Assembly: GCF_045037415.1 (NCBI RefSeq)
Contig: NZ_CP173438.1
DNA: 64,000 bases
Reading direction: 5' to 3' (one strand)
DNA from: Escherichia coli
GTDB lineage: Bacteria; Pseudomonadota; Gammaproteobacteria; Enterobacterales; Enterobacteriaceae
Program-made: the position numbers and the translations under genes
Notes under the pieces: model-generated
Told to the model about the DNA's origin: nothing
Databases searched by the model: none
What the model saw: only the letters and a program-made list of their open reading frames with translations
In this document: piece after piece, positions 30,738 through 46,196 of the stretch
Layout: every line of letters starts with the position of its first letter
Numbering within the stretch: position 1 is the stretch's first letter

Positions 30738-32731
30738 GATAACTTCCTGTTAATCACGCAATCCGGGCTTGCCGTCAGGCTTCCGGTATTACCGTTGATT
30801 TCAAAACCCTGAACCTGGCGCATTTGTGAGAAATGATTTGCCAACGACCAGGCATCGACACCCATCGCATACATGCGAGCCAGCGAATAATCGTTGTTCA
30901 CCGCGCTGAGCGCCTGCTGCATTAACGGCAGATTACCGCCTGCCAGCATCGGGATTTCGCTGTACTGCAAGCCTTCCATCTCCAGGCGGAAATCCGGGCC
31001 AGCGGTCCCTTGCGCACTGCGGGAACTGGCGTACAGCGTTGCACCGCTCTGGCTACCGTTACGCATGGCGATCATCGGTTTGATAAAAGCGATTTCACCC
31101 GGCGTTGCCACAATGTACACCGCATCGACACGACCGCCATTATTGGTGAACTGGTCATCGGTTGGCGTGGTTTGCAGCGTTGGATTGTTGGTCGTCATGC
31201 CGGAGTCGGTTGTCGCTCTGGGAGTAATCGGGCTACCCGTTAAAGCAATACCAGAACCGCCGTTAACACCCGCGCGTAATTCGCTGGTGGAACCAAATTT
31301 TTGTTGCAGAACGGTGCCGCCACCCAGTTTCTGCCACTCTTGCGCAAACGCATTGGCTACGCGATCGCCCAATGAACTGCGCGGGATCAGCACCAGCGGC
31401 GCTTGTTTACCCTGGTCACGAATATGACGCGCTGCATCGCGCGCTTCGTCTTCTGGCGAAAGCGCGAAGTAACAAATATTGACGCGGTTTTCGATATTCT
31501 CCGGCTGGTTCAGTGCCAGCACGTTCAGCGGGGTGTTGCTCTTCAGCAACTCTTCAACGTTATTTTTCAGCAACGGACCGACCACAATACTCGCACCATC
31601 CTGCTGAACCTGGCTTAAGATCTGGCTAAGTGGTTGTGATGAGGTATCGTAGATTTTCAGCTCTGCGGATGGATTTGCGGGTGCGTTTACCGCTGCGGTG
31701 CTTGTCGCCGGGGCGCTTACAGGTACCGGCTGGGCCGCAGGCTGTTCACCGGTCAGATCGCTAACCGAAGCTTGTGCCGGGCTGGCAACGCCATCCACGG
31801 TTTGCGGCTGAGGTTGTTCTGCTACGTCTGCGGCAGGTGCGGCAGCTACCTGGGCCGCCACTGGCTGAGTGCCGATATTTTTCGCCGCTTCAAAGCCTTG
31901 CTGAATAGTGCGACCAAATACCGCTGCCTGGCCATTCAGCGGCAACAGCAGGGCGATTTTGTTGGTCGATGCTGGTTTAAACGCTTTTACGTTAACCAAC
32001 TGCGTTGGCAGCATTTTCGCGCCCGGGTTGTTCGGATAACGTTTCTGCCAGTCGGCGATCCCAGCTTTCATCATGTCAGGATCGTTACGGTTATCAAACC
32101 AGACGCGCTGCAAATCCAGCCAGCCTTGCAGAATATTTTCGTCGGCGTTGATCACCAGCGTATTCGCCTGCTCCTGAGTCATGGAGGAGAGCGCCTGCCA
32201 TGTGGCGTCAATATTCTGCTGCTTTTCTTTCGCACCGAGCAGCGGTTCCTGAGCAATTAACGCGCGCAGTAAATCAATGGAAGGACGCCCCTGGCTGGCA
32301 TCGATTTTTGCCTGCCAGTAACGGGCTTGCTGGTTTTGTTCTAAATCGGCAGGTGTGATTTTCGCCAGCAAGTTTTGCGCGCCAGCAAAATCTTTCTGCG
32401 CCAGTTTAATCTCTGCCGCCAGCAGTGTTTTCTCGCGACGCTGATTATCATTCAGTTCTTGCGGTAGTTGGTTAACCAACTCAACCGCCTGCCCGGTTTT
32501 ACCTTCTTTCACCAGTGCACGAATGGCGAGTAATTGCCAGTTGATCCTGGTATCATCAGAACTTTGCTGCATCTGTTGCAGGTAAAAAGCAGAATCAGCC
32601 TGCGCCGTGCCCTGCATATAAGCAGTGGACTGATCGGGAGTATGGGTGCCACAACCGGCGAAAATCAGGGCTGCCAAAACAACAGGCAGACAACGCGCGG
32701 CTTTCAAACGAGAAAATGTTGAGGGTACCAT
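30695..32731 (-). CDS. lpoA: penicillin-binding protein 1A activator lipoprotein LpoA
   Basis: ORF 30695..32761; ATG at 32731 gives 678 aa [28 protein letters not shown]... with lipobox FAGC; 3' end overlaps yraN start by 43 nt. Confidence 0.9.
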
Positions 32732-32795
32732 AATGTATCCAGTGATATTTTTTTTACGCAATGCTCAATATTAAATCGGCAATACGGACGACACA

Positions 32796-33659
32796 ATGAA
32801 ACAACACCAATCGGCGGATAATTCTCAGGGGCAGCTTTACATTGTACCGACGCCAATCGGCAATCTGGCGGATATCACCCAGCGTGCATTAGAGGTATTA
32901 CAGGCCGTTGATCTGATTGCCGCCGAGGATACGCGTCACACCGGTTTATTGCTGCAACATTTTGGGATTAATGCCCGGTTGTTTGCGCTGCACGATCATA
33001 ACGAACAACAAAAAGCCGAAACGCTGCTGGCGAAGCTGCAAGAGGGGCAAAACATTGCGCTGGTTTCCGATGCCGGAACGCCGCTAATTAACGATCCTGG
33101 CTACCATCTGGTGCGTACCTGTCGTGAAGCGGGGATTCGCGTGGTGCCGCTACCAGGGCCGTGTGCTGCTATCACTGCGTTAAGCGCCGCGGGTTTACCA
33201 TCCGATCGTTTTTGTTATGAAGGCTTTTTACCTGCCAAATCAAAAGGCCGCCGTGATGCGCTAAAAGCTATTGAAGCGGAGCCGCGCACGCTGATTTTTT
33301 ATGAATCTACCCACCGTCTGTTAGATAGCCTGGAAGATATTGTTGCGGTATTAGGCGAATCCCGTTACGTGGTTCTGGCGCGTGAGCTAACCAAAACCTG
33401 GGAAACCATTCACGGCGCGCCCGTTGGCGAGCTGCTGGCGTGGGTAAAAGAAGATGAAAACCGTCGCAAAGGCGAAATGGTGCTGATTGTCGAAGGCCAT
33501 AAAGCGCAGGAAGATGACCTGCCTGCTGATGCCCTGCGCACGCTGGCGCTGTTACAGGCAGAACTGCCGCTGAAAAAAGCGGCGGCGCTGGCCGCAGAAA
33601 TTCACGGCGTGAAGAAAAATGCGCTGTATAAGTATGCGCTGGAGCAGCAGGGAGAGTGA
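32796..33659 (+). CDS. rsmI: 16S rRNA (cytidine1402-2'-O)-methyltransferase RsmI
   Basis: 287 aa [52 protein letters not shown]... Confidence 0.93.
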
Positions 33660-33662
33660 TTA

Positions 33663-33698
33663 CAGGCGTCGCAGCAGGAATAGCGCTGCAACGCCTGT
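33663..33698. terminator. near-perfect 13-bp inverted repeat hairpin between convergent rsmI and agaI (putative bidirectional terminator)
   Basis: CAGGCGTCGCAGC-aggaatagc-GCTGCAACGCCTG, 12 of 13 pairs; no strong T-run. Confidence 0.4.
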
Positions 33699-33708
33699 AC
33701 CAGGCGAG

Positions 33709-34476
33709 TTAACGACGACACATTTCATCAATCACGCATGTGAAATGGTTATGCAGCCATAAAAATGAAGCCGGGATAGCGGTGGAGACTTTAGCCGTGA
33801 GAAAACGTTCTGTCGCATCCTGTTTTCCTTCGCCAGTTATCAGTAACAAAACTTCGCGGGCATTGAGAATATCCTTCAGGCCTAAGGTGATCCCACGAGT
33901 CACGGGACGGTCAGCGGTTTTTAACATCTCATGTTGCTGTGTTCTGGCATCAAGTTGACTGATATGGCAGGCCGGTTGCAGGCTTTCTCCCGGTTCGTTC
34001 AGCCCAAGATGACCGTTTTTCCCCAATCCGAGAACGCATAAGTCCAGACCGCCTTTGCGCGCAATCAGGTTCGTTACCCGTTCGCACTCTGTCTCATTTA
34101 TCTCTTCGGAGTGAAAGCTGATGAGCTGGTCTTCACGTAGCCCCAGCGGCTGCACGATATGCTGTTGAAGGAAAGTTTCGCAGGTACCAGGCATCGTTAA
34201 TGGCAGATCCACCCATTCGTCGAGCTTCACGAAGGTGAGCTGGCTGACATCAACCTGCTGCTGGTGGATTTTTTCTACCAAATAATGATACGTCAGTAAT
34301 GGCGTGGCTCCGGTCGCCAGGCAAATCACGGCATCCGGTTTGCTACGGATCACGGCCAATAAATATTCGCTGGCACGTTCACTTAACGCCGTATAGTTTT
34401 CAACTTGTTGAAGGGTTTGCACAGGATGAAATTCCTTAAGTAAAGAGGCACCGCCAGACGCGGTGCCTCGTTCCAT
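33709..34476 (-). CDS. agaI: putative galactosamine-6-phosphate deaminase/isomerase AgaI (NagB family)
   Basis: 255 aa ORF MERGTASGGASLLKEFHPVQTLQQVENYTALSERASEYLLAVIRSKPDAVICLATGATPL... Confidence 0.88.
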   Translation of the reverse strand: MERGTASGGASLLKEFHPVQTLQQVENYTALSERASEYLLAVIRSKPDAVICLATGATPLLTYHYLVEKIHQQQVDVSQLTFVKLDEWVDLPLTMPGTCETFLQQHIVQPLGLREDQLISFHSEEINETECERVTNLIARKGGLDLCVLGLGKNGHLGLNEPGESLQPACHISQLDARTQQHEMLKTADRPVTRGITLGLKDILNAREVLLLITGEGKQDATERFLTAKVSTAIPASFLWLHNHFTCVIDEMCRR

Positions 34477-35268
34477 TTACAAAATGCCGAATGCAGAACA
34501 AACAATAGAAAGAACAAACGTCACGCCGATTAACAGCACCGGATGCGCTTTTTTCACCCGCAGGAAGTAATACATCAGCAGGGTGTAGGCCATCGGTAAA
34601 ATATTCGGGAAGACTTTATCGAAGAAATCCTGCTGCAGCGCGACGCTGTGGGTACTGTCGATGGCAAACGATGTCACCACGTTAATATGCACATACGAAG
34701 CGATCAGCCCGCCGATTACTGTGATCCCGAGGATGGTTGCCGAACGGGCAATCATCTGCGAGTTCTCTCGCACTTTATCAATAGCCTTCACGCCGACTGA
34801 ATAACCGACGTGGGTCCAGCCGACGCGCAGGAAAAAGATAAGCAGGTAAACGGCGAAAAACAAAATCGGTCCCAACAGGTTCCCCTGACTGGCAAACGAT
34901 GAGCAAATCCCCGCCATAATCGGCAACAAAGTAAACCAGAAAATCGCATCGCCAATCCCGGCGATTGGGCCAAACAGTGCCACTTTGAGGCCTTTAATGG
35001 TGTCGCGGTTTTCTCCTTTTTCTTCCATCGAAATTAATAACCCCATCAGAAATCCGACCAGATTAGGGTGGGTATTAATAAATTCGAGGTTATCTTTCAT
35101 CGCCGCGCTTAGGCCCGGTTTGTCGTTCTTATAAATCTTTTTCAGGATCGGCAACATCGCCCAGGTAAAACCGCCCGCCTGCATCCTTTCGTAGTTAAAG
35201 CTTGCTTGTAGCAGTGACGAACGAAAGCCCAGACGGGTGATATCTTTTTTACTGATTTCAGATCCCAT
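34477..35268 (-). CDS. agaD: PTS mannose-family IID component (galactosamine-specific)
   Basis: ORF 34477..35415; ATG at 35268 gives 263 aa MGSEISKKDITRLGFRSSLLQASFNYERMQAGGF... Confidence 0.9.
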   Translation of the reverse strand: MGSEISKKDITRLGFRSSLLQASFNYERMQAGGFTWAMLPILKKIYKNDKPGLSAAMKDNLEFINTHPNLVGFLMGLLISMEEKGENRDTIKGLKVALFGPIAGIGDAIFWFTLLPIMAGICSSFASQGNLLGPILFFAVYLLIFFLRVGWTHVGYSVGVKAIDKVRENSQMIARSATILGITVIGGLIASYVHINVVTSFAIDSTHSVALQQDFFDKVFPNILPMAYTLLMYYFLRVKKAHPVLLIGVTFVLSIVCSAFGIL

Positions 35269-36061
35269 TGCTGTAGTCCTCTTCTTCATTTTTACTGGCA
35301 ACGGGCTGCGGTTGCGCTTGCTGCCGGGATTTCGCATTGAAAAACTCATACACCGCAAAGCCTGCGCCCAGCACGGCAACCGGCAACAGGTTGCTGACCT
35401 GGATGTAGCAAACAAACAGGAAACCGGCGATCAGGTAAGGGATATATTGCGCTTTGAACATCACGCGCAGCAGCAAGCCAAAACCAACGGCAGGCAGAAT
35501 ACCGCCAGCCACTTCAAAGCCGTGGGTCAGCCAGGCGGGCATCGCTTTCACCAGCGCCTGCATCGCCCCTTGTGCCAGGTAAGTACAGAGGAAAGCAATC
35601 ACCGCATACGCTGAAGCGACGATGAGCATCGTTGTCCAGTTAAGTCGGGAAAACGCTGCCGTATCCGCCTCTTTCGCGCATTTATCGGCTTTGGTCATAA
35701 ATAATGAGAAAGCGGAATAGAAGAACAGAATGACGTACTGCATTAACAAACTAAACGGCAGGCCAAGACCAATTGCCGTTTTGGCATCAACGCCCGTAGA
35801 CCATGCAATGACGGTGGTCATCAGACCCGCCATAATAGGGTTGGGCGGCTGAACACCACCTGCAGGGGTTAATCCGGCGAAAGCCAACTCTGTCAGGCCT
35901 CCGGTAATTAAGCCAGTCTGAATATCACCGAGAATAGCACCTGTAAGGGTACAAACGATTATCGGGCGGAATAAAAATAAGGCTTCCAGCCAAAAATCAA
36001 TCCCCAGAACGAAAACTAACGCCGCCAGGGATAATCCCTGGAGTAGGGTTATTTCATGCAT
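35258..36061 (-). CDS. agaC: PTS mannose-family IIC component (galactosamine-specific)
   Basis: 267 aa hydrophobic ORF MHEITLLQGLSLAALVFVLGIDFWLEALF...; overlaps agaD start by 11 nt. Confidence 0.9.
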   Translation of the reverse strand: MHEITLLQGLSLAALVFVLGIDFWLEALFLFRPIIVCTLTGAILGDIQTGLITGGLTELAFAGLTPAGGVQPPNPIMAGLMTTVIAWSTGVDAKTAIGLGLPFSLLMQYVILFFYSAFSLFMTKADKCAKEADTAAFSRLNWTTMLIVASAYAVIAFLCTYLAQGAMQALVKAMPAWLTHGFEVAGGILPAVGFGLLLRVMFKAQYIPYLIAGFLFVCYIQVSNLLPVAVLGAGFAVYEFFNAKSRQQAQPQPVASKNEEEDYSNGI

Positions 36062-36099
36062 TTTTATTACCTCAAACCAATATTAAGGCGATTTCAGAT

Positions 36100-36576
36100 T
36101 TAGTCAGGGATTTGTTCTTTTTGATCGCCAGGAACGTCCTGAATGAAAACATTCACGCCACGTTGTTTAATATAACGTAAGTCCGTGAGATCCTGGTCAT
36201 CGACATAAACTTTACTGCTGATTTGCTTTTTCCCTTCCGAGAAATGCATATTGCCGACGTTGACATCTTTCAGGTCAATACCACCTTCTACCAATTTACG
36301 TACCGTTTGTGGCGTACGGCAAATCAGGAAGATCTTCTGATGTGGTGCAGCTTTGCCGATGACGTTAATGGTTTTTTCGATAGTAAAGAAACGAATGCCA
36401 AAGCCGTAGGTTTCTGCGGTAATACCCATTAATTTCTGTTGAATATCATCGTTAGCGACAACATCATCCACGACTACCAACAGATTCGCACCGATGGTGG
36501 ATGTCCAGGTCACGCCAACCTGACCGTGAACCAGACGGTTATCAATACGGGTTAAGAGAATATTTGGACTGCTCAT
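36100..36576 (-). CDS. agaB: PTS mannose-family IIB component (galactosamine-specific)
   Basis: 158 aa ORF MSSPNILLTRIDNRLVHGQVGVTWTSTIGANLLVVVDD... Confidence 0.9.
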   Translation of the reverse strand: MSSPNILLTRIDNRLVHGQVGVTWTSTIGANLLVVVDDVVANDDIQQKLMGITAETYGFGIRFFTIEKTINVIGKAAPHQKIFLICRTPQTVRKLVEGGIDLKDVNVGNMHFSEGKKQISSKVYVDDQDLTDLRYIKQRGVNVFIQDVPGDQKEQIPD

Positions 36577-36742
36577 TGTGTAATCCTCACCATAAAGTTG
36601 AATAATATAATATTTTTAAATATATTATTGTTGCGATATTGTACTGATGTATTTATTAATGTTTGGTTATCTCCTTTGCCATTAAGGTACTACCCGATAT
36701 TAATCGGGCAGTGCATTCTGAAAAAACGTATAAAATTAATGA

Positions 36743-37615
<873 letters not shown>

Positions 37616-38770
37616 TTATGCCTGCCACGGATGAATAGTTACGCCTTGCACCACGCGGTTTACGGTGCCACTGGCTGATGGGGTATCCGGCGTATTGCCC
37701 ATGTGCAGCGACTGCATCAGTGCAAACGTCTGGGCGTACATCAGGAAGCAAAATGCTTGTTCAACGTCGATAAAGTGACGGGACGGCGGCAGGATGATAT
37801 GCGGGCCAGCGGCGATAACGTCGTTGCTTTCAGCGGTGATGGCGATCACGCGCATTGCCTGGTTGTCACGGCGGAGTTCTGCCAGCAGGTCAAGATCGTA
37901 CTGACGGGTGTAAGGGTGACTGGAGACAAACACCACTACCAGCGTTTCGTCATCGACCAGCGATTTCGGGCCATGACGGAATCCGGTCGGGGAATCATAG
38001 AAGGCCGCCAGTTTACCCGCTGTCAGTTCCAGCACTTTCAGCGCCGACTCGCGTGCTGCGCCCTGTAAGCCACCGCTGCCGAGATAAACGATCCGTTTCC
38101 ACGGTGCGTAACCAAACACACCTTCGCTGAAATCGCCCAGTGAGGTCAGGATCGCCTGGCAACGATCCGCCACGTCGCGGAAGGTTTGGCTGTTGATCGT
38201 CTCAGGTGCGAAAACCGCGAGGCAGCTGGCCATCATGGTGGTAATGCTGCTGGTCATCGCAAAGCCGCGATCGTGCGTTTCTGCGGGCATCAGCAGGGCA
38301 AACGCGTTGTCGCTGTTGATCGCGTTTTGGTAAAGAGCGCCCGCTTCGTTGCAGGTGATCGGCAGGTGATAGCATTCTGGTACAAATTGATTTGCCAGTT
38401 CCACGGCGGCGACGCTTTCCGGGCTGTTGCCGGAGCGACCGAAGGAGATCAACAGTAGCGGATGAGCTGGGTTCAGGTAGTCCATTGGATTGGTGACCAG
38501 ATCGGTGGTTGGTACGGCGCTGAAGTTTTTACCGGTATGGCTGGCGAGCCACGGCGCGATGATGTCACCGATAAATGCCGATGTTCCGGCTCCGGTCAGG
38601 ATGATTTGCAGATTCTCTTTGCGCAGTAACGGTTCAAGGAAGTTATTGAGCGCGGAACGTAGCGCGTCAATGTTGGTGAGTGAACGGATCCATGCGCGAG
38701 GCTGATGGCGGATCTCTTCTTCAGTCCATGTACCGGTTGCGGCAGCAGCAGGGGTGTAATTTTCTGGCAT
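37616..38770 (-). CDS. agaS: SIS-domain sugar-phosphate isomerase/deaminase AgaS
   Basis: 384 aa ORF MPENYTPAAAATGTWTEEEIRHQPRAWIRSLTNIDALRSALNNFLEPLL... Confidence 0.92.
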   Translation of the reverse strand: MPENYTPAAAATGTWTEEEIRHQPRAWIRSLTNIDALRSALNNFLEPLLRKENLQIILTGAGTSAFIGDIIAPWLASHTGKNFSAVPTTDLVTNPMDYLNPAHPLLLISFGRSGNSPESVAAVELANQFVPECYHLPITCNEAGALYQNAINSDNAFALLMPAETHDRGFAMTSSITTMMASCLAVFAPETINSQTFRDVADRCQAILTSLGDFSEGVFGYAPWKRIVYLGSGGLQGAARESALKVLELTAGKLAAFYDSPTGFRHGPKSLVDDETLVVVFVSSHPYTRQYDLDLLAELRRDNQAMRVIAITAESNDVIAAGPHIILPPSRHFIDVEQAFCFLMYAQTFALMQSLHMGNTPDTPSASGTVNRVVQGVTIHPWQA

Positions 38771-38774
38771 AACT

Positions 38775-38945
38775 CAATCCTTAGTCTGATGAACTTGACG
38801 TCGGCGTTGTCGCTTTCGCTTGCCTTTCGTTTCATTTCACTTGGTGATTTCTTTCGTTGGTTAAAATCTATAGAAAAGAAACTGAAAGTTCAATGGAGAA
38901 AAAGGAAATAAAACGAAATCTGTGATCGTTGAAAGAAAAGACAAG
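38775..38945 (-). promoter_or_regulatory. agaS promoter region with CTTTC/GAAAG-rich direct repeats (candidate AgaR operators)
   Basis: GCCTTTCGTTTCATTTCACTT... and repeated GAAA(G) units seen in sequence; AgaR operators are known to be built on such repeats. Confidence 0.45.
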
Positions 38946-38962
38946 GGAAGTAAAAGGGATTG

Positions 38963-39043
38963 CTGGATGCGGCGTAAATACTTTATCCGGCCTTACGGTC
39001 ACCAACCGTAGGTCGGATAAGGCGCATTAGCGTCGCATCCGAC
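38963..39043. repeat. REP/BIME pair between agaA and agaS
   Basis: CTGGATGCGGCGTAAATACTTTATCCGGCC and GTAGGTCGGATAAGGCGCATTAGCGTCGCATCCGAC. Confidence 0.7.
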
Positions 39044-39060
39044 ACCGCTGCACAGATCAA

Positions 39061-39106
39061 AAAGAAAGAAAAAGAAAGGCCTTACGGGGGAAGTGAAGGC
39101 CTAATA
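39061..39106 (-). terminator. Rho-independent terminator after agaA (end of agaZVWEFA transcription unit)
   Basis: minus-strand reading AGGCCTTCACTTCCCCCGTAAGGCCT followed by TTTCTTTTTCTTTC. Confidence 0.55.
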
Positions 39107-39119
39107 AAGGAGCAAACCA

Positions 39120-40253
39120 TCAAAACGAAGCTAATTGACCCTGAATCCAGATTTGTTGCACATGCAGCCCGCTATCCAGCGCAACGACGCTGGCGCGTTT
39201 GCCCGGTTTAAGCGATCCCAGAACACCATCAACACCCAGCATTCGCGCCGGATGCAGCGACGCCATATGGATGGCTTCCGCAGGCGTTACGCCCGTCAAC
39301 TCGACCATGTTGCGCACTGCCGCATCGACAGACAGCGTACTGCCCGCCAGCCCACCGAACGCGGTACGGACAATGCCACCGTGCATCTGCACTTCTTCAC
39401 CACATAACGTATAGTGACCATCCGGCATCCCGGCTGCCTGCATCGCGTCGGTGATCAGTACGATCCTCTCTTTCGCACAGCAACAACAGAGCGACATTGC
39501 CGCCGGATGTACATGATGACCATCGGCTATCAGTTCCAGCCAGGCGCGCTTGTCCGTTAATCCCGCGCCAACCATTCCCGGTTCGCGGTGATGTAAACCT
39601 GTCATCCCGTTATAGCAATGCACCAGGCCGTCGGCACCAGCATCAAACGCGGCACGGGTTTGTTGCCAGGTCGCCGCGCTATGCCCCAGCATCACCCGTA
39701 CGTTTTGCTGTTTAAGATGGCGGATGGCCTGCAATGCCCCTTCTTTTTCTGGTGCCAGCGCTACCACGCGTAAGGTCTGCTGAGAAACGGCAATCAATTG
39801 ATCCAGCTCGGCAATTTCCAGCTCGCGAAACAGCTCCGGCGGATGTGCGCCTTTATTCTGCGGCGTGAAGTACGGTCCTTCGAGATAACTCCCCAGCACT
39901 TGCGCACCAGGCCCACCGCGCTGGCAGCGTAGAGCAATACGTTTCAGCGCCGCATGAATGGTATTAAGCGGCGCGGTTACGGTGGTCGGTAACCAACTGC
40001 CGACACCTTCGCGTGCCTTGTGCATTGCCAGCTTGTCGAGCGCATCCGGCGCGTCATCCATTACATCAACGCCCGCACCACCGTGTACATGGGTGTCGAT
40101 GTAAGCGGGGCAGAGCAGTTCCGCATCGCGTTCAGTCACGCCCACTGGAATCGGTTCGATTGCTGCGATTACACCGTCAGCAATACGCAACTGATGGTCA
40201 TCGAGCCATCCCTCTTCAGTCAGCAGCCTTCTGGCGCGCAGAACGTGTGTCAT
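39120..40253 (-). CDS. agaA: N-acetylgalactosamine-6-phosphate deacetylase AgaA, full length
   Basis: ORF 39120..40274; ATG at 40253 (ATGA overlap with agaF stop) gives 377 aa MTHVLRARRLLTEEGWLDDHQLRIADGVIAAIEPI...; amidohydrolase HxH motif; alternative start at 40274. Confidence 0.88.
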   Translation of the reverse strand: MTHVLRARRLLTEEGWLDDHQLRIADGVIAAIEPIPVGVTERDAELLCPAYIDTHVHGGAGVDVMDDAPDALDKLAMHKAREGVGSWLPTTVTAPLNTIHAALKRIALRCQRGGPGAQVLGSYLEGPYFTPQNKGAHPPELFRELEIAELDQLIAVSQQTLRVVALAPEKEGALQAIRHLKQQNVRVMLGHSAATWQQTRAAFDAGADGLVHCYNGMTGLHHREPGMVGAGLTDKRAWLELIADGHHVHPAAMSLCCCCAKERIVLITDAMQAAGMPDGHYTLCGEEVQMHGGIVRTAFGGLAGSTLSVDAAVRNMVELTGVTPAEAIHMASLHPARMLGVDGVLGSLKPGKRASVVALDSGLHVQQIWIQGQLASF

Positions 40254-40684
40254 ATTCCTTCCTCGACCGGACATTCCTCATGGCAGCGACCAAGTTCGTC
40301 CACCAGACTGGTTAGCCCACGGTGTCCACACTCCAGCGCCTGCACACGGAACTCTTCACCGCTTAACCCTTCGCGTTCCAGCACCATTTCCAGTAATAGT
40401 TGCAAATTTGTGCCGGTGATCACTTCACAGCCCGGTTTTTGCATCGCCAGCGTTGAAGCTACGCGAAACGGCGTGCCGCCCAGCAAATCCGTCAGAAAAA
40501 CAATGCCGTCTTCACAATCCAGTTGGGCGATGGCCTCTTCAAGCTGCGATGTAAGCAGCGCGGTGCTTGAGGTTTCTGGAAAATCGATGGCGATAAACTG
40601 CGATTGCTCGCCGAGGATTTGCTTCATTGCTTTTTCCATGCCGCTGGCAAATCCGCCATGCCCTGTCAAAATAATACTTAACAT
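40250..40684 (-). CDS. agaF: PTS mannose-family IIA component (N-acetylgalactosamine/galactosamine)
   Basis: 144 aa ORF MLSIILTGHGGFASGMEKAMKQILGEQSQFIAIDFPE... Confidence 0.88.
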   Translation of the reverse strand: MLSIILTGHGGFASGMEKAMKQILGEQSQFIAIDFPETSSTALLTSQLEEAIAQLDCEDGIVFLTDLLGGTPFRVASTLAMQKPGCEVITGTNLQLLLEMVLEREGLSGEEFRVQALECGHRGLTSLVDELGRCHEECPVEEGI

Positions 40685-40701
40685 CTAATACCTCATTGTA
40701 T

Positions 40702-41586
40702 TTAAAGGAAATGGCAGAATTTACCGACGATGCCGAGAACCACTGTCACTGCAATCAGGCGCAGCGGACTCCAGCCGCGGCGTACCAGCCAGAACATGGT
40801 CAGGGTGTAGACCAGCGGTAAGAAGGCAGGCATCAGTTTGTCGATAACATCAGCCTGTAACTTAACCACTGCGTCGCCCGCCGTGATTTCCAGCGTGGTG
40901 CTTAAACGAACATAGGTTGCCACCAGCGCGCCGATCACCGTCATCCCAACGATAGACGCCGCATGGCCGACTTTTTTGGTATTTGCTTTAATGAGTGGAA
41001 TAGCCGCCACGCCCATGCGGTAAGCATAATGCGCCAGACCAAAACGCAGCCCCAGGTGCACCACGTTGAACAGCACAATAAAGACGACAGCGCCAAGAAT
41101 AGAGCCTTGTAGCGCGAGGCTTGCGCCTATCCCGCCACAAATCGGCAGTAGCGTTAGCCAGAACATCGCATCGCCAATCCCGCCGAGCGGCGCACCGACG
41201 GCAATTTTGGTGCTCTGAATACTGTTAACGTCCTGCTTAGAACGCTCCATCGCAAGGATAATGCCGATAACAAACGTCACCAGAAACGGATGGGTATTGA
41301 AGAAACCCATATGCCCCTTCATGGCGCGCGCCAGGTCCCGTTTATTAGTGTGGATCTTTTTCAGAGCAGGCAGCAGACCGTACAACCAGCCGGAAGCCTG
41401 CATACGTTCGTAGTTGAAAGACGCTTGTAACAGCATGGAGCGCCAGGCGACGCGGTTGATATCTTTTTTCGTCAGCTCTGCGCCAATGCTCTGATCTTCA
41501 TACACGTTTTCATTGACGCCAGTCAGCAGTGTTTCTTCATTTTCGCTGACGTTCGGCAGGGTGGTTTGATTAGATGCCATCTTCAA
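40702..41586 (-). CDS. agaE: PTS mannose-family IID component (N-acetylgalactosamine-specific)
   Basis: 294 aa ORF MKMASNQTTLPNVSENEETLLTGVNENVYEDQSIGAELTKKDINRVAWRSMLLQASFNYERMQ... Confidence 0.88.
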   Translation of the reverse strand: MKMASNQTTLPNVSENEETLLTGVNENVYEDQSIGAELTKKDINRVAWRSMLLQASFNYERMQASGWLYGLLPALKKIHTNKRDLARAMKGHMGFFNTHPFLVTFVIGIILAMERSKQDVNSIQSTKIAVGAPLGGIGDAMFWLTLLPICGGIGASLALQGSILGAVVFIVLFNVVHLGLRFGLAHYAYRMGVAAIPLIKANTKKVGHAASIVGMTVIGALVATYVRLSTTLEITAGDAVVKLQADVIDKLMPAFLPLVYTLTMFWLVRRGWSPLRLIAVTVVLGIVGKFCHFL

Positions 41587-42349
41587 ATTCCTCTTTCTGT
41601 GCCGCAGGTTGAGTCGGTTCAGGAGATTTACGCAGCAGGTCGATCAGCGCCATCGCCAGCGCAGCGGCAGCAATAGCCAGCACCGGTAACTTGAGCCAGG
41701 CTGCGGCAACAAAGCCCAGGATGAAGTAGGGGATGTAGACGTTTTTCATCATGATTTTCAGCAGCACGGCAAAACCGATTGCTGGCATGATGCCGCCCGC
41801 GACGCCGAGGCCATCAATTAATCGTTGCGGCAGGACATCAATGATGGTTTTTGCATGTTCCGCGCCGAAGTAGATAGGCAGGAAAGCGCAGAGAAAATAG
41901 AAAGTGCCGAGTGCCAGCAGTGCCAGATAGTTCACGCGTTCAATGCCGCGAGTATCGGCGTTCTCCGCCATCCGGTCGCAGCGGGACATCACGCCGGACA
42001 TCACCGAGAACAGGAAGGTAATCCCCATCTGTACTGCAACAGCGAAAGGTACGGCGACACCGACCGCGACATCGGGTTTCACGCCAGTAGTAATGGCAAA
42101 CGCCGTGCCGACGATAGTACCGATAATCACGTTAGGCGGCTGTGCGCCCGCCAGCGGGGCCAGCCCCATCCACACCAGTTCCAGCGTACCGCCGGTTAAA
42201 ATACCGGTATGCAGATCGCCAAGTACCAGCCCGACCAACGGGCCGAGAACCACCGGGCGGTGCATATGGGTTAAGCCGTTAAACATATCCAGGCCAGCGA
42301 TAAAGGCGATAATGCCCAACGCAAATGCCTGCAACAGACTGATTTCCAT
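41570..42349 (-). CDS. agaW: PTS mannose-family IIC component (N-acetylgalactosamine-specific), full length
   Basis: 259 aa hydrophobic ORF MEISLLQAFALGIIAFIAGLDMFNGLTHMHRPVVLGPL...; overlaps agaE start by 17 nt. Confidence 0.88.
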   Translation of the reverse strand: MEISLLQAFALGIIAFIAGLDMFNGLTHMHRPVVLGPLVGLVLGDLHTGILTGGTLELVWMGLAPLAGAQPPNVIIGTIVGTAFAITTGVKPDVAVGVAVPFAVAVQMGITFLFSVMSGVMSRCDRMAENADTRGIERVNYLALLALGTFYFLCAFLPIYFGAEHAKTIIDVLPQRLIDGLGVAGGIMPAIGFAVLLKIMMKNVYIPYFILGFVAAAWLKLPVLAIAAAALAMALIDLLRKSPEPTQPAAQKEEFEDGI

Positions 42350-42359
42350 GATGAATCCC

Positions 42360-42833
42360 TCAAAGTAATTTAAAGAGGTCCACAGCAGGCTCTGTCGGGA
42401 CGCCCTGAACGAAGCATTCCACCCCAGCGGCTTTCAGGTCGTTAAATGCTGCGATATCACCCGCATCCACAGAAACCGTTTTGGCGATTTGTTGCTTGCC
42501 ATTGGCGTAGTGCATATTGCCAACGTTAATGCGATTCACCGGAACGCCACCTTTCACCAGCGTCAGGAAATCGGCCGGTGTTTTACAAACCAGCAGGATT
42601 TTCTGTCGATCGGCGGCGCGATGGATGTTGTCGATGACTTTTTGCAGCGTCCAGAAACGTACGGCGATCCCTTCTGCCAGTACCATTTCCATCAGGTTTT
42701 GTTGTACCGGATCTTCGGCAACCTCATCGTTGGCTACCAGCACCAGATTTGCCCCCGCAAATCCTACCCACTGAACGCCGACCTGACCGTGAATCAAGCG
42801 TTCATCAATCCGACTTAAAACAATATTTGGCAT
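42360..42833 (-). CDS. agaV: PTS mannose-family IIB component (N-acetylgalactosamine-specific)
   Basis: ORF 42360..42869; ATG at 42833 gives 157 aa MPNIVLSRIDERLIHGQVGVQWVGFAGANLVLVANDE... Confidence 0.9.
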   Translation of the reverse strand: MPNIVLSRIDERLIHGQVGVQWVGFAGANLVLVANDEVAEDPVQQNLMEMVLAEGIAVRFWTLQKVIDNIHRAADRQKILLVCKTPADFLTLVKGGVPVNRINVGNMHYANGKQQIAKTVSVDAGDIAAFNDLKAAGVECFVQGVPTEPAVDLFKLL

Positions 42834-42855
42834 AGCGTGTTCCTCTTTGTTTTGC

Positions 42856-44136
42856 TTATTGGCCTTCACAGGCTGTGTGGTACTGCGCCAGGATGTCCTG
42901 AATATGGTTGATAATGAGTTCCCGTGGCGTTGGCTGCAGCTCGCCGGAGCGAACTTTCACGTACTGCAGCGGCAGATACTGACTGATCAGCGGCAGCGGA
43001 ATTGGTGAATCCGCCAGATTACGAACCAGATGAGCGAAAGCGTCATCAATCTGGCTGTCCGGCCAGTAATAGCGCACGCGATCCGAGTAGCTATAACCAC
43101 GCGCCAGACGACGCGCGTTGCCGTCACCGTGGTAGTGGCTTTGCCAGTATTCCGGGCGGTCGAGCATCACGTTTTCCAGCACCTGACGCAGACCAGAACA
43201 GGCTTTTGCTGGCACTAGTTCTTCTTCAATCGCTGCCAGAGAGAACAGAGCTTCACGCAGAGCAAAGGTCAGCGCCGGGCCAACTTTCAGAATGGCAAAG
43301 TGGTCAATCACCAGCTGGCGCAGCGATTGCGGCGTTTGATAATCGGTAGAGTGCGCTTCGAAAATCAGCGTTTCGTAGTTTTCGACCATCTGGCTTAAGG
43401 CGGTCGCTTTGGCGGGCTGATAATCAATAACGTTGGTGTGATCGAATTCGACGCCGGGTTGAACCACCAGGGCAATGATGCGTGGCCAGATGGCATTCAG
43501 ACCCTGCTTTTCAAAAGCGTGACGATGGGCTTCCAGCGTGGCGCGGGCGGCATCCGGCGTGGTGACCGCCAGCTCGCTTAAGGTTTCATGCGCGCCGCCA
43601 GGCACCGGCACTTCGGTACCAATGACATACTCCAGATCGGCTTCGCCAAAATGTTCACGGCAGGTTTCTTCCGCCACTTTCGCCAAACGAGCGGCGCGTT
43701 CGGCCACGATGCCATCGGTTAAGGGAATCGGATCGTCCTGACAGGACATGCTGCAATCAAGGTGAATTTTTTTGAATCCTGCCGCCACGTAGCTTTTAAT
43801 CAAATCATCGGCATTGGCCATTGCCTGAGCGGCAGGCAGATTTTGCCAGCGGTTTGGCCCCAGATGGTCGCCACCCAGAATCAGCGCATCCTGCGGGAAA
43901 TTCAACGAGTCGGCGAGCTGACAAACAAAGCCGCGAAAACCGGCGGGCGTCATTCCGGTATAACCGCCAAACTGGTCCACCTGATTGGAGGTAGCTTCAA
44001 TCAGTAACGGCGTTTGGTTTGCACTGGCGTAGCGGATTGCAGCTTCCAGCACCAGCGGATGTGCGGAACAAACGGCATAAATCCCATTTGTTTTGCCCGC
44101 TTTGTGCTGTCTCACCATTTCTGTCAGATGTTTCAC
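42856..44136 (-). CDS. kbaZ: tagatose-bisphosphate aldolase non-catalytic subunit KbaZ (AgaZ)
   Basis: 426 aa [64 protein letters not shown]... Confidence 0.92.
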
Positions 44137-44384
44137 TTTCCTCTCCAGTTCAGATTACTGCGACATTAATCTTTCGTTTTGTTTCAGTTGATACTGCGTC
44201 ATGGTGAGATAAAAATAAAACGAAAGATAATAGTTTTCTGATCTGATTCACAAAAGAAACATAATGAAAGCCACTGAAACGAGAGTAGCTTGCGCCAATG
44301 GGTAAGGTGGGCTTGCATTTGCTTAATAGAAAGGCGTTAATAGGCAAAACGAAATGAAACGAAAGTTTTACGAAAGGACTTACT
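44137..44384. promoter_or_regulatory. divergent kbaZ / agaR control region with repeated (A)AACGAAA(G/T) units (candidate AgaR operators)
   Basis: AAACGAAAGATAATAG..., AACGAAATGAAACGAAAGTTTTACGAAAGG seen between divergent start codons. Confidence 0.45.
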
Positions 44385-45194
44385 ATGAGTAATACCGACG
44401 CTTCAGGTGAGAAGCGAGTGACAGGCACCAGCGAGCGACGAGAACAGATCATTCAGCGTCTGCGACAGCAAGGGAGTGTGCAGGTTAACGATCTGTCGGC
44501 ATTGTATGGCGTATCTACTGTGACGATCCGCAACGATCTGGCGTTTCTGGAAAAGCAGGGGATCGCCGTGCGTGCCTATGGTGGCGCGTTGATCTGCGAT
44601 AGCACAACGCCGTCAGTCGAGCCATCAGTGGAAGATAAAAGCGCACTGAACACCGCGATGAAACGCAGCGTTGCGAAAGCTGCCGTTGAGTTGATTCAGC
44701 CTGGTCATCGGGTGATCCTCGACTCCGGGACCACCACTTTTGAGATTGCTCGTCTGATGCGCAAGCACACCGACGTAATTGCGATGACCAACGGTATGAA
44801 CGTGGCTAATGCGTTGCTGGAAGCGGAAGGCGTTGAGCTGCTGATGACCGGGGGGCATTTGCGCCGTCAGTCGCAATCTTTTTACGGTGATCAGGCTGAG
44901 CAATCGCTGCAAAATTACCACTTCGATATGCTGTTTCTTGGTGTAGATGCGATCGATCTGGAGCGTGGCGTCAGCACGCATAATGAAGATGAAGCCCGTT
45001 TAAACCGTCGGATGTGCGAAGTTGCGGAACGGATCATCGTGGTCACCGATTCCAGTAAGTTCAACCGTTCCAGTTTACATAAGATCATTGATACTCAACG
45101 TATCGACATGATCATTGTTGATGAAGGCATTCCTGCGGATAGTCTGGAAGGACTGCGAAAGGCTGGGGTTGAAGTGATTCTGGTCGGGGAATGA
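44385..45194 (+). CDS. agaR: DeoR-family transcriptional repressor of the aga regulon
   Basis: 269 aa [62 protein letters not shown]...; N-terminal HTH. Confidence 0.93.
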
Positions 45195-45199
45195 GAAAG

Positions 45200-45238
45200 G
45201 ATGCCCGCTGGTCAACACCAATGCGTTCGGCGGGCATT
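45200..45238. terminator. inverted repeat ATGCCCGC...GCGGGCAT between convergent agaR and yhaV (putative bidirectional terminator)
   Basis: 8-bp perfect arms with about 21-nt loop. Confidence 0.35.
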
Positions 45239-45248
45239 GTGAACACCA

Positions 45249-45713
45249 TCAATGGTTTTCTTCTGTCTCTTGGGTGAGGCTTTCCCAGTCGGCAGGAGGA
45301 TGTCCTCTTTTTAACATTTTACTGAATACGGTATAGGCATCTGTTTTTTTACCGTAGGTGCGCAGCGTGTTTTCATCGTTCATCCATCCCAGAATGATGA
45401 CTTTCTCTTTTTCACTGTAACGAAAGAAGAGACGATAGCGACCAGCACCAAATTTTACCCGTGACCAGTCTTTATTTTTCCCAGAGCCTAACGACTTGCC
45501 ATGACGGAATGCCGGTGATGATGGATTGACCGTGATATGCTCCTCAATCACTTTATGGACCACCGCCAATAACTTTGTGGCAGCTTTTCTCTGATAATTT
45601 TCAGGATCTTTTCCCTTTAATGCCTCGACTTCGGCAACTAAAGCATCGTAGGTTTCCTGAAAACAGGGATGAGCATATAGCGCCCAACCATTAACCCTTT
45701 GTGGAAAATCCAT
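45249..45713 (-). CDS. yhaV: type II toxin YhaV (ribosome-dependent mRNA endoribonuclease)
   Basis: 154 aa ORF MDFPQRVNGWALYAHPCFQETYDALVAEVEALKGKDPENYQRKAATKLLAVVHKVIEEH... Confidence 0.9.
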   Translation of the reverse strand: MDFPQRVNGWALYAHPCFQETYDALVAEVEALKGKDPENYQRKAATKLLAVVHKVIEEHITVNPSSPAFRHGKSLGSGKNKDWSRVKFGAGRYRLFFRYSEKEKVIILGWMNDENTLRTYGKKTDAYTVFSKMLKRGHPPADWESLTQETEENH

Positions 45714-46048
45714 TATTCGTCGTCGCCAATCTCATCGTCAATGTTGACGTCCATGCCAGCGACAAGTTTCTTTCCTTGTTGAATGTCGAATGGACGAGTT
45801 TTTTGCGGATTGTTCTGGATATCTGCATCCAGAAAACGCAAAAATGCATTCATAGTATGATCCTCCTGTTCATCTCCCAGTCGGCACATAAATACTTGCC
45901 CACCAGGCAGAATTTCGTAATGAATGCTGTCCAGGCCTGGCTTCAGTTTTAAGGCCTCACGCACTGGCGCGGGGATAGTTGTTTGTCCGCGTATAGTGAC
46001 CTTTGATTCAGTGGTCAGTACAGCGTTAGAGCGAGCATTAGCGGGCAT
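45713..46048 (-). CDS. prlF: type II antitoxin PrlF (SohA), AbrB/SpoVT-type DNA-binding domain
   Basis: 111 aa ORF MPANARSNAVLTTESKVTIRGQTTIPAPVREALKLKPGLDSIHYEILPGGQVFMC... with acidic C-terminus; 1-nt overlap with yhaV start. Confidence 0.9.
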   Translation of the reverse strand: MPANARSNAVLTTESKVTIRGQTTIPAPVREALKLKPGLDSIHYEILPGGQVFMCRLGDEQEDHTMNAFLRFLDADIQNNPQKTRPFDIQQGKKLVAGMDVNIDDEIGDDE

Positions 46049-46140
46049 TATTTACTGTCCTTTTACAGCCTGTTTTCTGCTCAAATTATAAGCTTGAACT
46101 AAGGTAATGCAAATGCATTATTAATGGATGTGTGGACTTT
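46049..46140 (-). promoter_or_regulatory. prlF-yhaV promoter region with palindromic candidate operator
   Basis: near-palindrome TAATGCAAATGCATTA at about 46107-46122 upstream of prlF start. Confidence 0.4.
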
Positions 46141-46171
46141 AAACAATAAAAACATGGCACTAAGGCCATGT
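46141..46171 (-). terminator. Rho-independent terminator after garD
   Basis: stem ACATGGC/GCCATGT with T-rich tract TTTTTATTGTTT on minus strand. Confidence 0.55.
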
Positions 46172-46196
46172 TTTGCGAGGGACGTTCCAAAAGAAA

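Follow-up and report, generated by a model that had tools for sequence, protein, structure and literature searches.

The repeat array upstream of agaS in Escherichia coli as a very probable cluster of AgaR operators

Repressors of the DeoR/GlpR family, such as GlpR, DeoR, UlaR, SrlR and TagR of E. coli Nissle, act through multiple operators located around a promoter, often with CRP, and the agaS control region follows the same arrangement. The operators of DeoR and GlpR are palindromic. The sites of AgaR differ from the single palindrome of other DeoR/GlpR-family operators, as they consist of runs of 5-bp direct repeats. Such AgaR operators were reportedly described by Ray and Larson in 2004 at the agaZ (kbaZ), agaS and agaR promoters of E. 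coli K-12. These repressors are oligomeric, UlaR and AgaR being cited as tetramers and DeoR as an octamer (PMC10991401). The predicted operators of TagR also hold CTTTC/GAAAG, and CRP and repressor are arranged in the aga cluster in a way that resembles the TagR system (PMC12226905).

AgaR, a member of the DeoR family, is autoregulated and binds directly at agaZ and agaS, which it represses; its ligand is described as unclear (PMC4694137). The protein binds upstream of agaS and represses the promoter Ps (PMC3668189, PMC4694137, PMC8265036), and according to the RegulonDB summary the repression of agaSp involves several AgaR sites (PMC8265036). The induction of a Ps-lacZ fusion by GalNAc is approximately 20-fold, and agaS is expressed constitutively in agaR-deletion strains of E. 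coli C (PMC3668189). The regulators named AgaR in Streptococcus (AgaR1 and AgaR2 of S. suis, AgaR of S. pneumoniae) share the name and the pathway, the utilisation of GalNAc/GalN (PMC4694137, PMC5018945). They belong, however, to the GntR family rather than to DeoR, and bind palindromic operators of 14–24 bp (PMC4694137), which are unrelated to the motif considered here.

The window, which is the whole analysed DNA stretch of 64,000 nucleotides, carries the aga cluster on the minus strand, with agaR on the plus strand. Over positions 31600–46300, 14700 of 14701 bases agree with the annotated aga/gam cluster of E. coli SK1144. The genes that frame the two control regions are the following.

37616–38770, minus strand: agaS, which opens the regulated agaS-kbaY-agaBCDI unit (annotation; NCBIfam TIGR02815 agaS_fam, 634 bits)
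39120–40274, minus strand: agaA, named nagA by the NCBI annotation pipeline and a NagA-type deacetylase in NCBIfam
39122–39120, minus strand: agaA stop codon
42856–44136, minus strand: kbaZ
44385–45194, plus strand: agaR (annotation; NCBIfam NF040755 AgaR equivalog, 465 bits, cut-off 260)

The cluster further includes agaV, agaW, agaE and agaF, as well as kbaY, agaBCD and agaI. The cognate DeoR/GlpR-family repressor is thus encoded in the same cluster, 5.5 kb from the repeat stretch (38775–38945), which lies inside the 349-bp agaA–agaS spacer (38771–39119) and is carried by 5313 of 5426 complete E. coli genomes (~98%). The same locus is found in the K-12 aga regulon; MG1655 carries it at 3281626–3281975, the counterpart of 39119–38771 on the minus strand of the window. 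The agaA'-agaS spacer of MG1655 is 97% identical, and the five substitutions and one 1-bp indel within the stretch (at 38920, 38904, 38860, 38849, 38818 and near 38805) all fall outside the two 14-nt operator cores, which are identical. The motif known from K-12 is also present in the kbaZ/agaR spacer of the window. Upstream of the stretch, full-length agaW, agaE, agaF and agaA are kept, whereas in K-12 they are lost.

The initial annotation had described this spacer as an array of CTTTC/GAAAG-type repeats accompanied by a REP pair and the agaA terminator. By direct reading, all of the quoted repeat strings are found at their places:

38812–38842: quoted repeat GCTTTCGCTTGCCTTTCGTTTCATTTCACTT
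38874–38889: quoted repeat GAAAAGAAACTGAAAG
38911–38921: quoted repeat AAAACGAAATC
38932–38941: quoted repeat GAAAGAAAAG

The REP pair and the predicted terminator exist as well, outside the coordinates 38775–38945 given for the array. On the plus strand the stretch contains six TTTC and eight GAAA tetramers, and this total of 14 is the maximum over all 171-nt segments of the 64 kb (mean 2.1, sd 1.5). The second-densest segment of that length, with 10 TTTC/GAAA tetramers, is the kbaZ-agaR spacer. The strand partition is perfect, with all TTTC copies (38814–38852) located to the left of all GAAA copies (38873–38935), for which the chance probability with 6+8 items is ~0.0007. This switch of strand coincides with the predicted agaS core promoter. 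The elements of the region, from upstream to downstream of agaS transcription, are as follows.

38931–38941, minus strand: pyrimidine tract TCTTTTCTTTC, upstream of the CRP-like half-site (direct reading)
38921–38936, minus strand: candidate CRP site TCTTTCAACGATCACA
38899–38922, minus strand: O-up, CAGATTTCGTTTTATTTCCTTTTT, with the core TTTCGTTTTATTTC at 38918–38905, in the same orientation as agaS
38865–38893, minus strand: predicted agaS core promoter, with the -35 hexamer TTGAAC at 38893–38888 and the -10 hexamer TAGATT at 38870–38865
38846–38858, plus strand: extra repeats GATTTCTTTCGTT, covering +1 to +13 from the predicted start, downstream of the -10 hexamer and ahead of O-down
between A38858 and O-down, minus strand: leader segment AACGAAAGAAATC
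38821–38844, plus strand: O-down, TGCCTTTCGTTTCATTTCACTTGG, with the core TTTCGTTTCATTTC at 38825–38838, inverted relative to agaS
38812–38820, plus strand: extra copy GCTTTCGCT, with the first TTTC of O-down 11 bp away
between O-down and the Shine-Dalgarno sequence, minus strand: leader segment GCGAAAGCG
38778–38782, minus strand: agaS Shine-Dalgarno sequence AAGGA, invariant in 24 loci
38770–38768, minus strand: agaS ATG

The stretch very probably represents the AgaR operator cluster of the agaS-kbaY-agaBCDI promoter, within the N-acetylgalactosamine/galactosamine regulon. The 24-nt AgaR consensus used for comparison is WRMMTTTCRTTTYRTTTYNYTTKK, which reportedly goes back to Ray and Larson 2004 and EcoCyc. 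With up to three mismatches allowed, it has six matches in the 64 kb against 0.17 expected. All six are located in the agaA-agaS and kbaZ-agaR spacers, and the perfect ones lie at 38821–38844 and 44345–44368. The former is O-down, with 0 mismatches, which on the minus strand (38844–38821) reads CCAAGTGAAATGAAACGAAAGGCA, an inverted copy of the motif. O-up differs from the consensus at two positions here and at one in MG1655, and the two operators are 93% complementary over 14 nt (inverted repeat I2). The window has seven copies of the pattern TTTCNTTTYNTTTY, where 0.07 would be expected, and none lies outside the two aga spacers.

The motif was expected by the initial annotation to be shared with the kbaZ/agaR control region (44137–44384), and this is the case, independently of the consensus: the 15-mer CTTTCGTTTCATTTC and the 13-mer AAATAAAACGAAA are common to both spacers, which share six 12-mers against 0.02 expected and one 15-mer against 0. 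The copy of CTTTCGTTTCATTTC at 38824–38838, in O-down, is identical to 44351–44365. It also matches the first 14 bases of the PkbaZ AgaR site CTTTCGTTTCATTTTCGTTT, the printed sequence having one T more than the window at this point (PMC8667592, Table S3). The 20-nt PkbaZ binding sequence represses a synthetic promoter in an AgaR-dependent manner (PMC8667592, Table S3). The consensus matches, the shared k-mers and the published binding of AgaR upstream of agaS together support the proposal of multiple DeoR-type repressor sites. The repetitive promoter architecture is likewise present, but it is not unusual for the aga regulon, whose layout is already described. The AgaR operator system of agaS is a known one, described since 2004; it is real, conserved and ordinary.

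The agaS and kbaZ promoters are alike in their arrangement, with sense-oriented sites upstream and one inverted site downstream. The kbaZ/agaR spacer (44137–44384) is laid out like the agaS region, with sense TTTC triples at 44364–44346 and 44225–44212, a weaker consensus match at 44273–44250, and one inverted triple at 44172–44185, just upstream of the kbaZ start.

The search with AgaS gave 71 loci from about 20 enterobacterial genera, including Escherichia, Citrobacter, Enterobacter, Klebsiella, Raoultella, Kluyvera, Lelliottia, Yokenella, Pluralibacter, Salmonella enterica subsp. diarizonae, Yersinia, Buttiauxella, Cedecea, Kosakonia and others, and 24 of the loci were aligned. With up to three mismatches allowed, the density of consensus matches is 7.8 per kb over the 200 nt that precede agaS, compared with 0.029 per kb elsewhere in the loci. 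Two sites are fixed relative to the ATG, the sense one spanning about -153 to -130 and the inverted one about -77 to -54. In 70 of 71 loci the O-down core pattern keeps its position, -51 to -62 from the ATG; the O-up core pattern stands at about -150 in 52 of 71, and the distance between the outer edges of the two operators is 92–94 bp in 49 of these 52. The conserved islands of the 24-locus alignment are GATCACA, the nearly invariant block TTTCGTTTTATTTC, TTGA(A/C)C, CTTTCgaTTTCTTTTC, TAnATT, an invariant A, GTGAAAyGAAACGAAAG and AAGGA. The islands coincide with O-up, the -35, the -10 and O-down, and the sequence between them varies.

The agaS promoter was placed by this conservation, in which the columns TTGA...TAnATT are followed by the invariant A, and the agaA terminator was placed by folding. 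The promoter and terminator scan of 38700–39200 listed nothing under its 9-of-12 promoter rule and with the terminator loop over the limit of the tool; the agaS hexamers match the consensus at 8 of 12 positions. Transcription is predicted to start at A38858. O-up would then span about -64 to -41 and adjoin the -35 hexamer, and O-down would occupy about +15 to +38 of the transcribed leader. The 17-nt spacer between the hexamers, TTTCAGTTTCTTTTCTA, has TTTC repeats inside, and in Yersinia, Buttiauxella and some Kluyvera (18 of 71 loci) this spacer fits the triple-pentamer pattern exactly, as TTTCGTTTTCTTTT.

AgaR recognises 5-bp direct repeats in runs of three to four, with the form TTTCR-TTTYR-TTTYN-YTTKK. 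Here two opposed operators flank a weak predicted sigma-70 promoter, with O-up ending at the -35 and O-down located in the early transcribed region, and degenerate TTTC repeats fill the -35/-10 spacer and, in Escherichia, positions +1 to +13. The occupancy by AgaR would block the binding of RNA polymerase and/or promoter escape, and it would probably be cooperative between O-up and O-down through the oligomeric repressor. Growth on GalNAc or GalN lifts the repression. The centres of O-up and O-down are separated by 78 bp, or ~7.4 helical turns; this distance is non-integral, and therefore simple in-phase looping is not obviously favoured. No conserved helical phasing for looping is seen either in the 78 bp between the operators or in the distance from O-up to a candidate distal site, S1 (see below), which varies among genera.

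Class I CRP sites follow the pattern TGTGA-N6-TCACA and are centred near -61.5, -71.5 and similar positions. The candidate CRP site at 38921–38936, noted by direct reading, is centred at about -70.5 of the inferred start and matches this pattern at 7 of 10 positions. Only its right half, GATCACA (38927–38921), is conserved, with GATCAC present in at least 90% of the alignment, and this part may represent a CRP half-site beside O-up. An additional binding of CRP at this position is compatible with the AgaR operator cluster and is not a rival to it. A good CRP-like site, TGTGAATCAGATCAGA at 44237–44252 on the minus strand, is also present in the kbaZ promoter region, between two AgaR-type sites; this fits the requirement of the agaZ promoter for cAMP-CRP. 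In the literature, CRP is linked to the aga promoters in general terms (PMC12226905, PMC8265036).

The nature of the binding protein can also be considered from the opposite side, as the array could mainly serve another binder, such as an amino-sugar regulator of the NagC/Mlc type, CRP, or the nucleoid proteins H-NS or Fis, instead of AgaR. The AT-rich composition would be favoured by H-NS or Fis, the conserved GATCACA beside O-up looks like a CRP half-site, and TTTC/GAAA also occurs in the predicted TagR operators (CTTTCAAAATGAAAG, PMC12226905). Nevertheless, such a binder is very unlikely to be the main one: within the 64 kb the motif occurs in the two aga control regions only, and it accompanies agaS from genus to genus, the 20-nt piece described above is sufficient for AgaR-dependent repression of a synthetic promoter (PMC8667592), and the literature credits AgaR with the binding upstream of agaS (PMC3668189, PMC4694137, PMC8265036), where repression is lost upon agaR deletion in E. 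coli C (PMC3668189).

The repeats could, in turn, be a product of compositional low complexity, in which slippage creates purine and pyrimidine tracts of no function in an AT-rich spacer. The GC content is indeed 0.37 in the spacer against 0.51 in the window, and the copies at 38812–38820, 38846–38858 and 38931–38941 are not conserved outside Escherichia. Dinucleotide shuffling of the stretch, which controls for its AT-rich composition, gave on average only 6.8 ± 1.8 tetramers with a maximum of 13, and the observed 14 was reached in 0 of 5000 shuffles. Moreover, the cores are nearly invariant at fixed positions in about 20 genera while their flanks vary, and the same 15-mer stands in the other aga control region. 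Low complexity as an account of the array is thus extremely improbable, and for the two core operators it is effectively refuted by the shuffles and the conservation; it is possible for the lineage-specific extra copies.

Not all of the repeats belong to the conserved operators: those at 38812–38820, 38846–38858 and 38931–38941 are largely Escherichia-specific, and several repeats of the initial annotation are among the non-conserved ones. In the alignment, the repeats at 38846–38858 are found in Escherichia and partly in Pluralibacter, and are not conserved in most other genera. The copy at 38812–38820, which forms the direct repeat D6 with 38824–38832, is conserved in one other lineage only. 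C/T-rich tracts similar to that at 38931–38941 are seen in Enterobacter and Kosakonia, and Citrobacter and Klebsiella have none. These non-conserved extra repeats may be non-functional.

The explanations at the RNA level, namely that the inverted arrays UUUCGUUUUAUUUC and GAAAUGAAACGAAA pair into a long-range hairpin in the agaA read-through transcript and affect processing or agaS translation, or that the purine-rich leader is a translational element, are very improbable and were rejected after folding tests. The 14-nt inverted repeat I2 is 93% complementary, the read-through RNA folds the arrays together at -18.7 kcal/mol, and the hairpin-like shape even yields a spurious sub-threshold Rfam match to a plant miRNA precursor. 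Yet compared with shuffles this fold shows no significant advantage (z = -1.6), no notable structure is seen in the leader that begins at the predicted +1 (z = +0.28), and positions 9–10 of the O-down core vary between genera (CA, CG, TG) while O-up stays TA, without compensation. The motif also recurs in one orientation, both in the tail of the terminator and, in several copies, in the kbaZ/agaR spacer, as would be predicted for a protein-binding motif and not for a hairpin.

The AgaR operator cluster may extend further upstream, into the predicted terminator of agaA. Three elements lie in this part of the spacer.

39058–39102, minus strand: predicted agaA intrinsic terminator, with the hairpin at 39102–39077 by folding and the tail TTTCTTTTTCTTTCTTTTT
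39064–39077, minus strand: S1, candidate distal AgaR site in the terminator T-tract, a TTTC triple with 5-bp spacing, TTTCTTTTTCTTTC
38961–39050: REP pair in inverted orientation (BIME), between the agaA terminator and the agaS promoter, with inverted repeats I3, I5 and I7

The hairpin consists of 7+2 pairs followed by the T-rich tail, and the fold of the 73-nt segment is no better than shuffles (z = -1.1). The stems differ among genera with the pairing kept, which supports a real hairpin. Directly after it, the sequence CCTTTCTTTTCCTTTC is present in 57 of 71 loci (among them L006, L043 and L047) despite the differing stems, at about -250 from the agaS ATG; examples in which the stems are entirely different and CCTTTCTTTTCCTTTC is kept are Yersinia, Buttiauxella, Kluyvera sichuanensis and RIT691. 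Where the tail varies, its middle pentamer reads TTTTC instead of TTTCC, a change that the Y of the consensus allows. In Klebsiella michiganensis (locus L057) the tail, CCTTTACTTTCTTTTCCTTTCG, holds one extra pentamer, TTTAC, with the 5-bp register kept.

Such conservation of the tail suggests selection on more than the U-run, and hence a distal AgaR site. S1 is one of the seven TTTCNTTTYNTTTY matches of the window and differs from the consensus at three positions. On the other hand, its pentamers lack the purine at position five, a conserved tail is expected for a terminator anyway, and the position of the site follows the terminator and not the promoter, with S1–O-up distances of 47, 86, 101 or 159 bp depending on the genus. 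A three-part agaS control region, with S1 as the third AgaR site in the agaA terminator T-tract, is a tentative and rather doubtful proposal. If it were true, AgaR bound at S1 could cooperate with O-up and O-down, or could couple the read-through from the agaZ promoter to the occupancy of the repressor, so that one sequence would serve as terminator tail and operator. The presence of S1 in the tail is possibly a new detail.

REP elements are extragenic imperfect palindromes, about 35 nt long, that recur in the genome and share a conserved core. The REP core CTTATCCGACCTAC of the pair is located at 39008–39021 and has four further copies in the window against 0.44 expected. The Rfam family naRNA4, which presumably derives from REP elements, gives weak sub-threshold matches at 38957–39081. 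Among the compared loci, the REP pair is absent from the non-Escherichia genera, which have other sequence at this place; between terminator and promoter, the pair was thus inserted in Escherichia. An AT-rich block, ATCAATAAGATA, is common to the genera whose spacer is about 300 nt long, and lies approximately 40 nt upstream of GATCACA (about -190 from the ATG; loci L006, L008, L011, L015, L022, L043 and L047). E. coli is without this block and has the REP pair (38961–39050) at that place.

These results matter mainly for annotation, as they concern an operator cluster which controls the genes of galactosamine and N-acetylgalactosamine catabolism. The footprint across genera adds to the known system a distinction between the conserved core TTTC copies and the Escherichia-specific extras, as well as the recognition of the REP pair as an Escherichia insertion and of a candidate third site in the terminator tail.

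Several further features of the locus were noted. The genes agaW, agaE, agaF and agaA are intact here (40250–42349), while MG1655 carries an agaW'-agaA' deletion (locus L073, 6702–7626); by genotype, therefore, the strain is a GalNAc utiliser like E. coli C. On the other side of the cluster (region ~32700–34476), agaI (33709–34476) is directly followed by rsmI (32796–33659) and lpoA. The fimbrial genes yraHIJK, which separate agaI from rsmI in MG1655, are absent at this place. Immediately past agaR, the prlF-yhaV toxin-antitoxin pair is present at 45249–46048, as in K-12.
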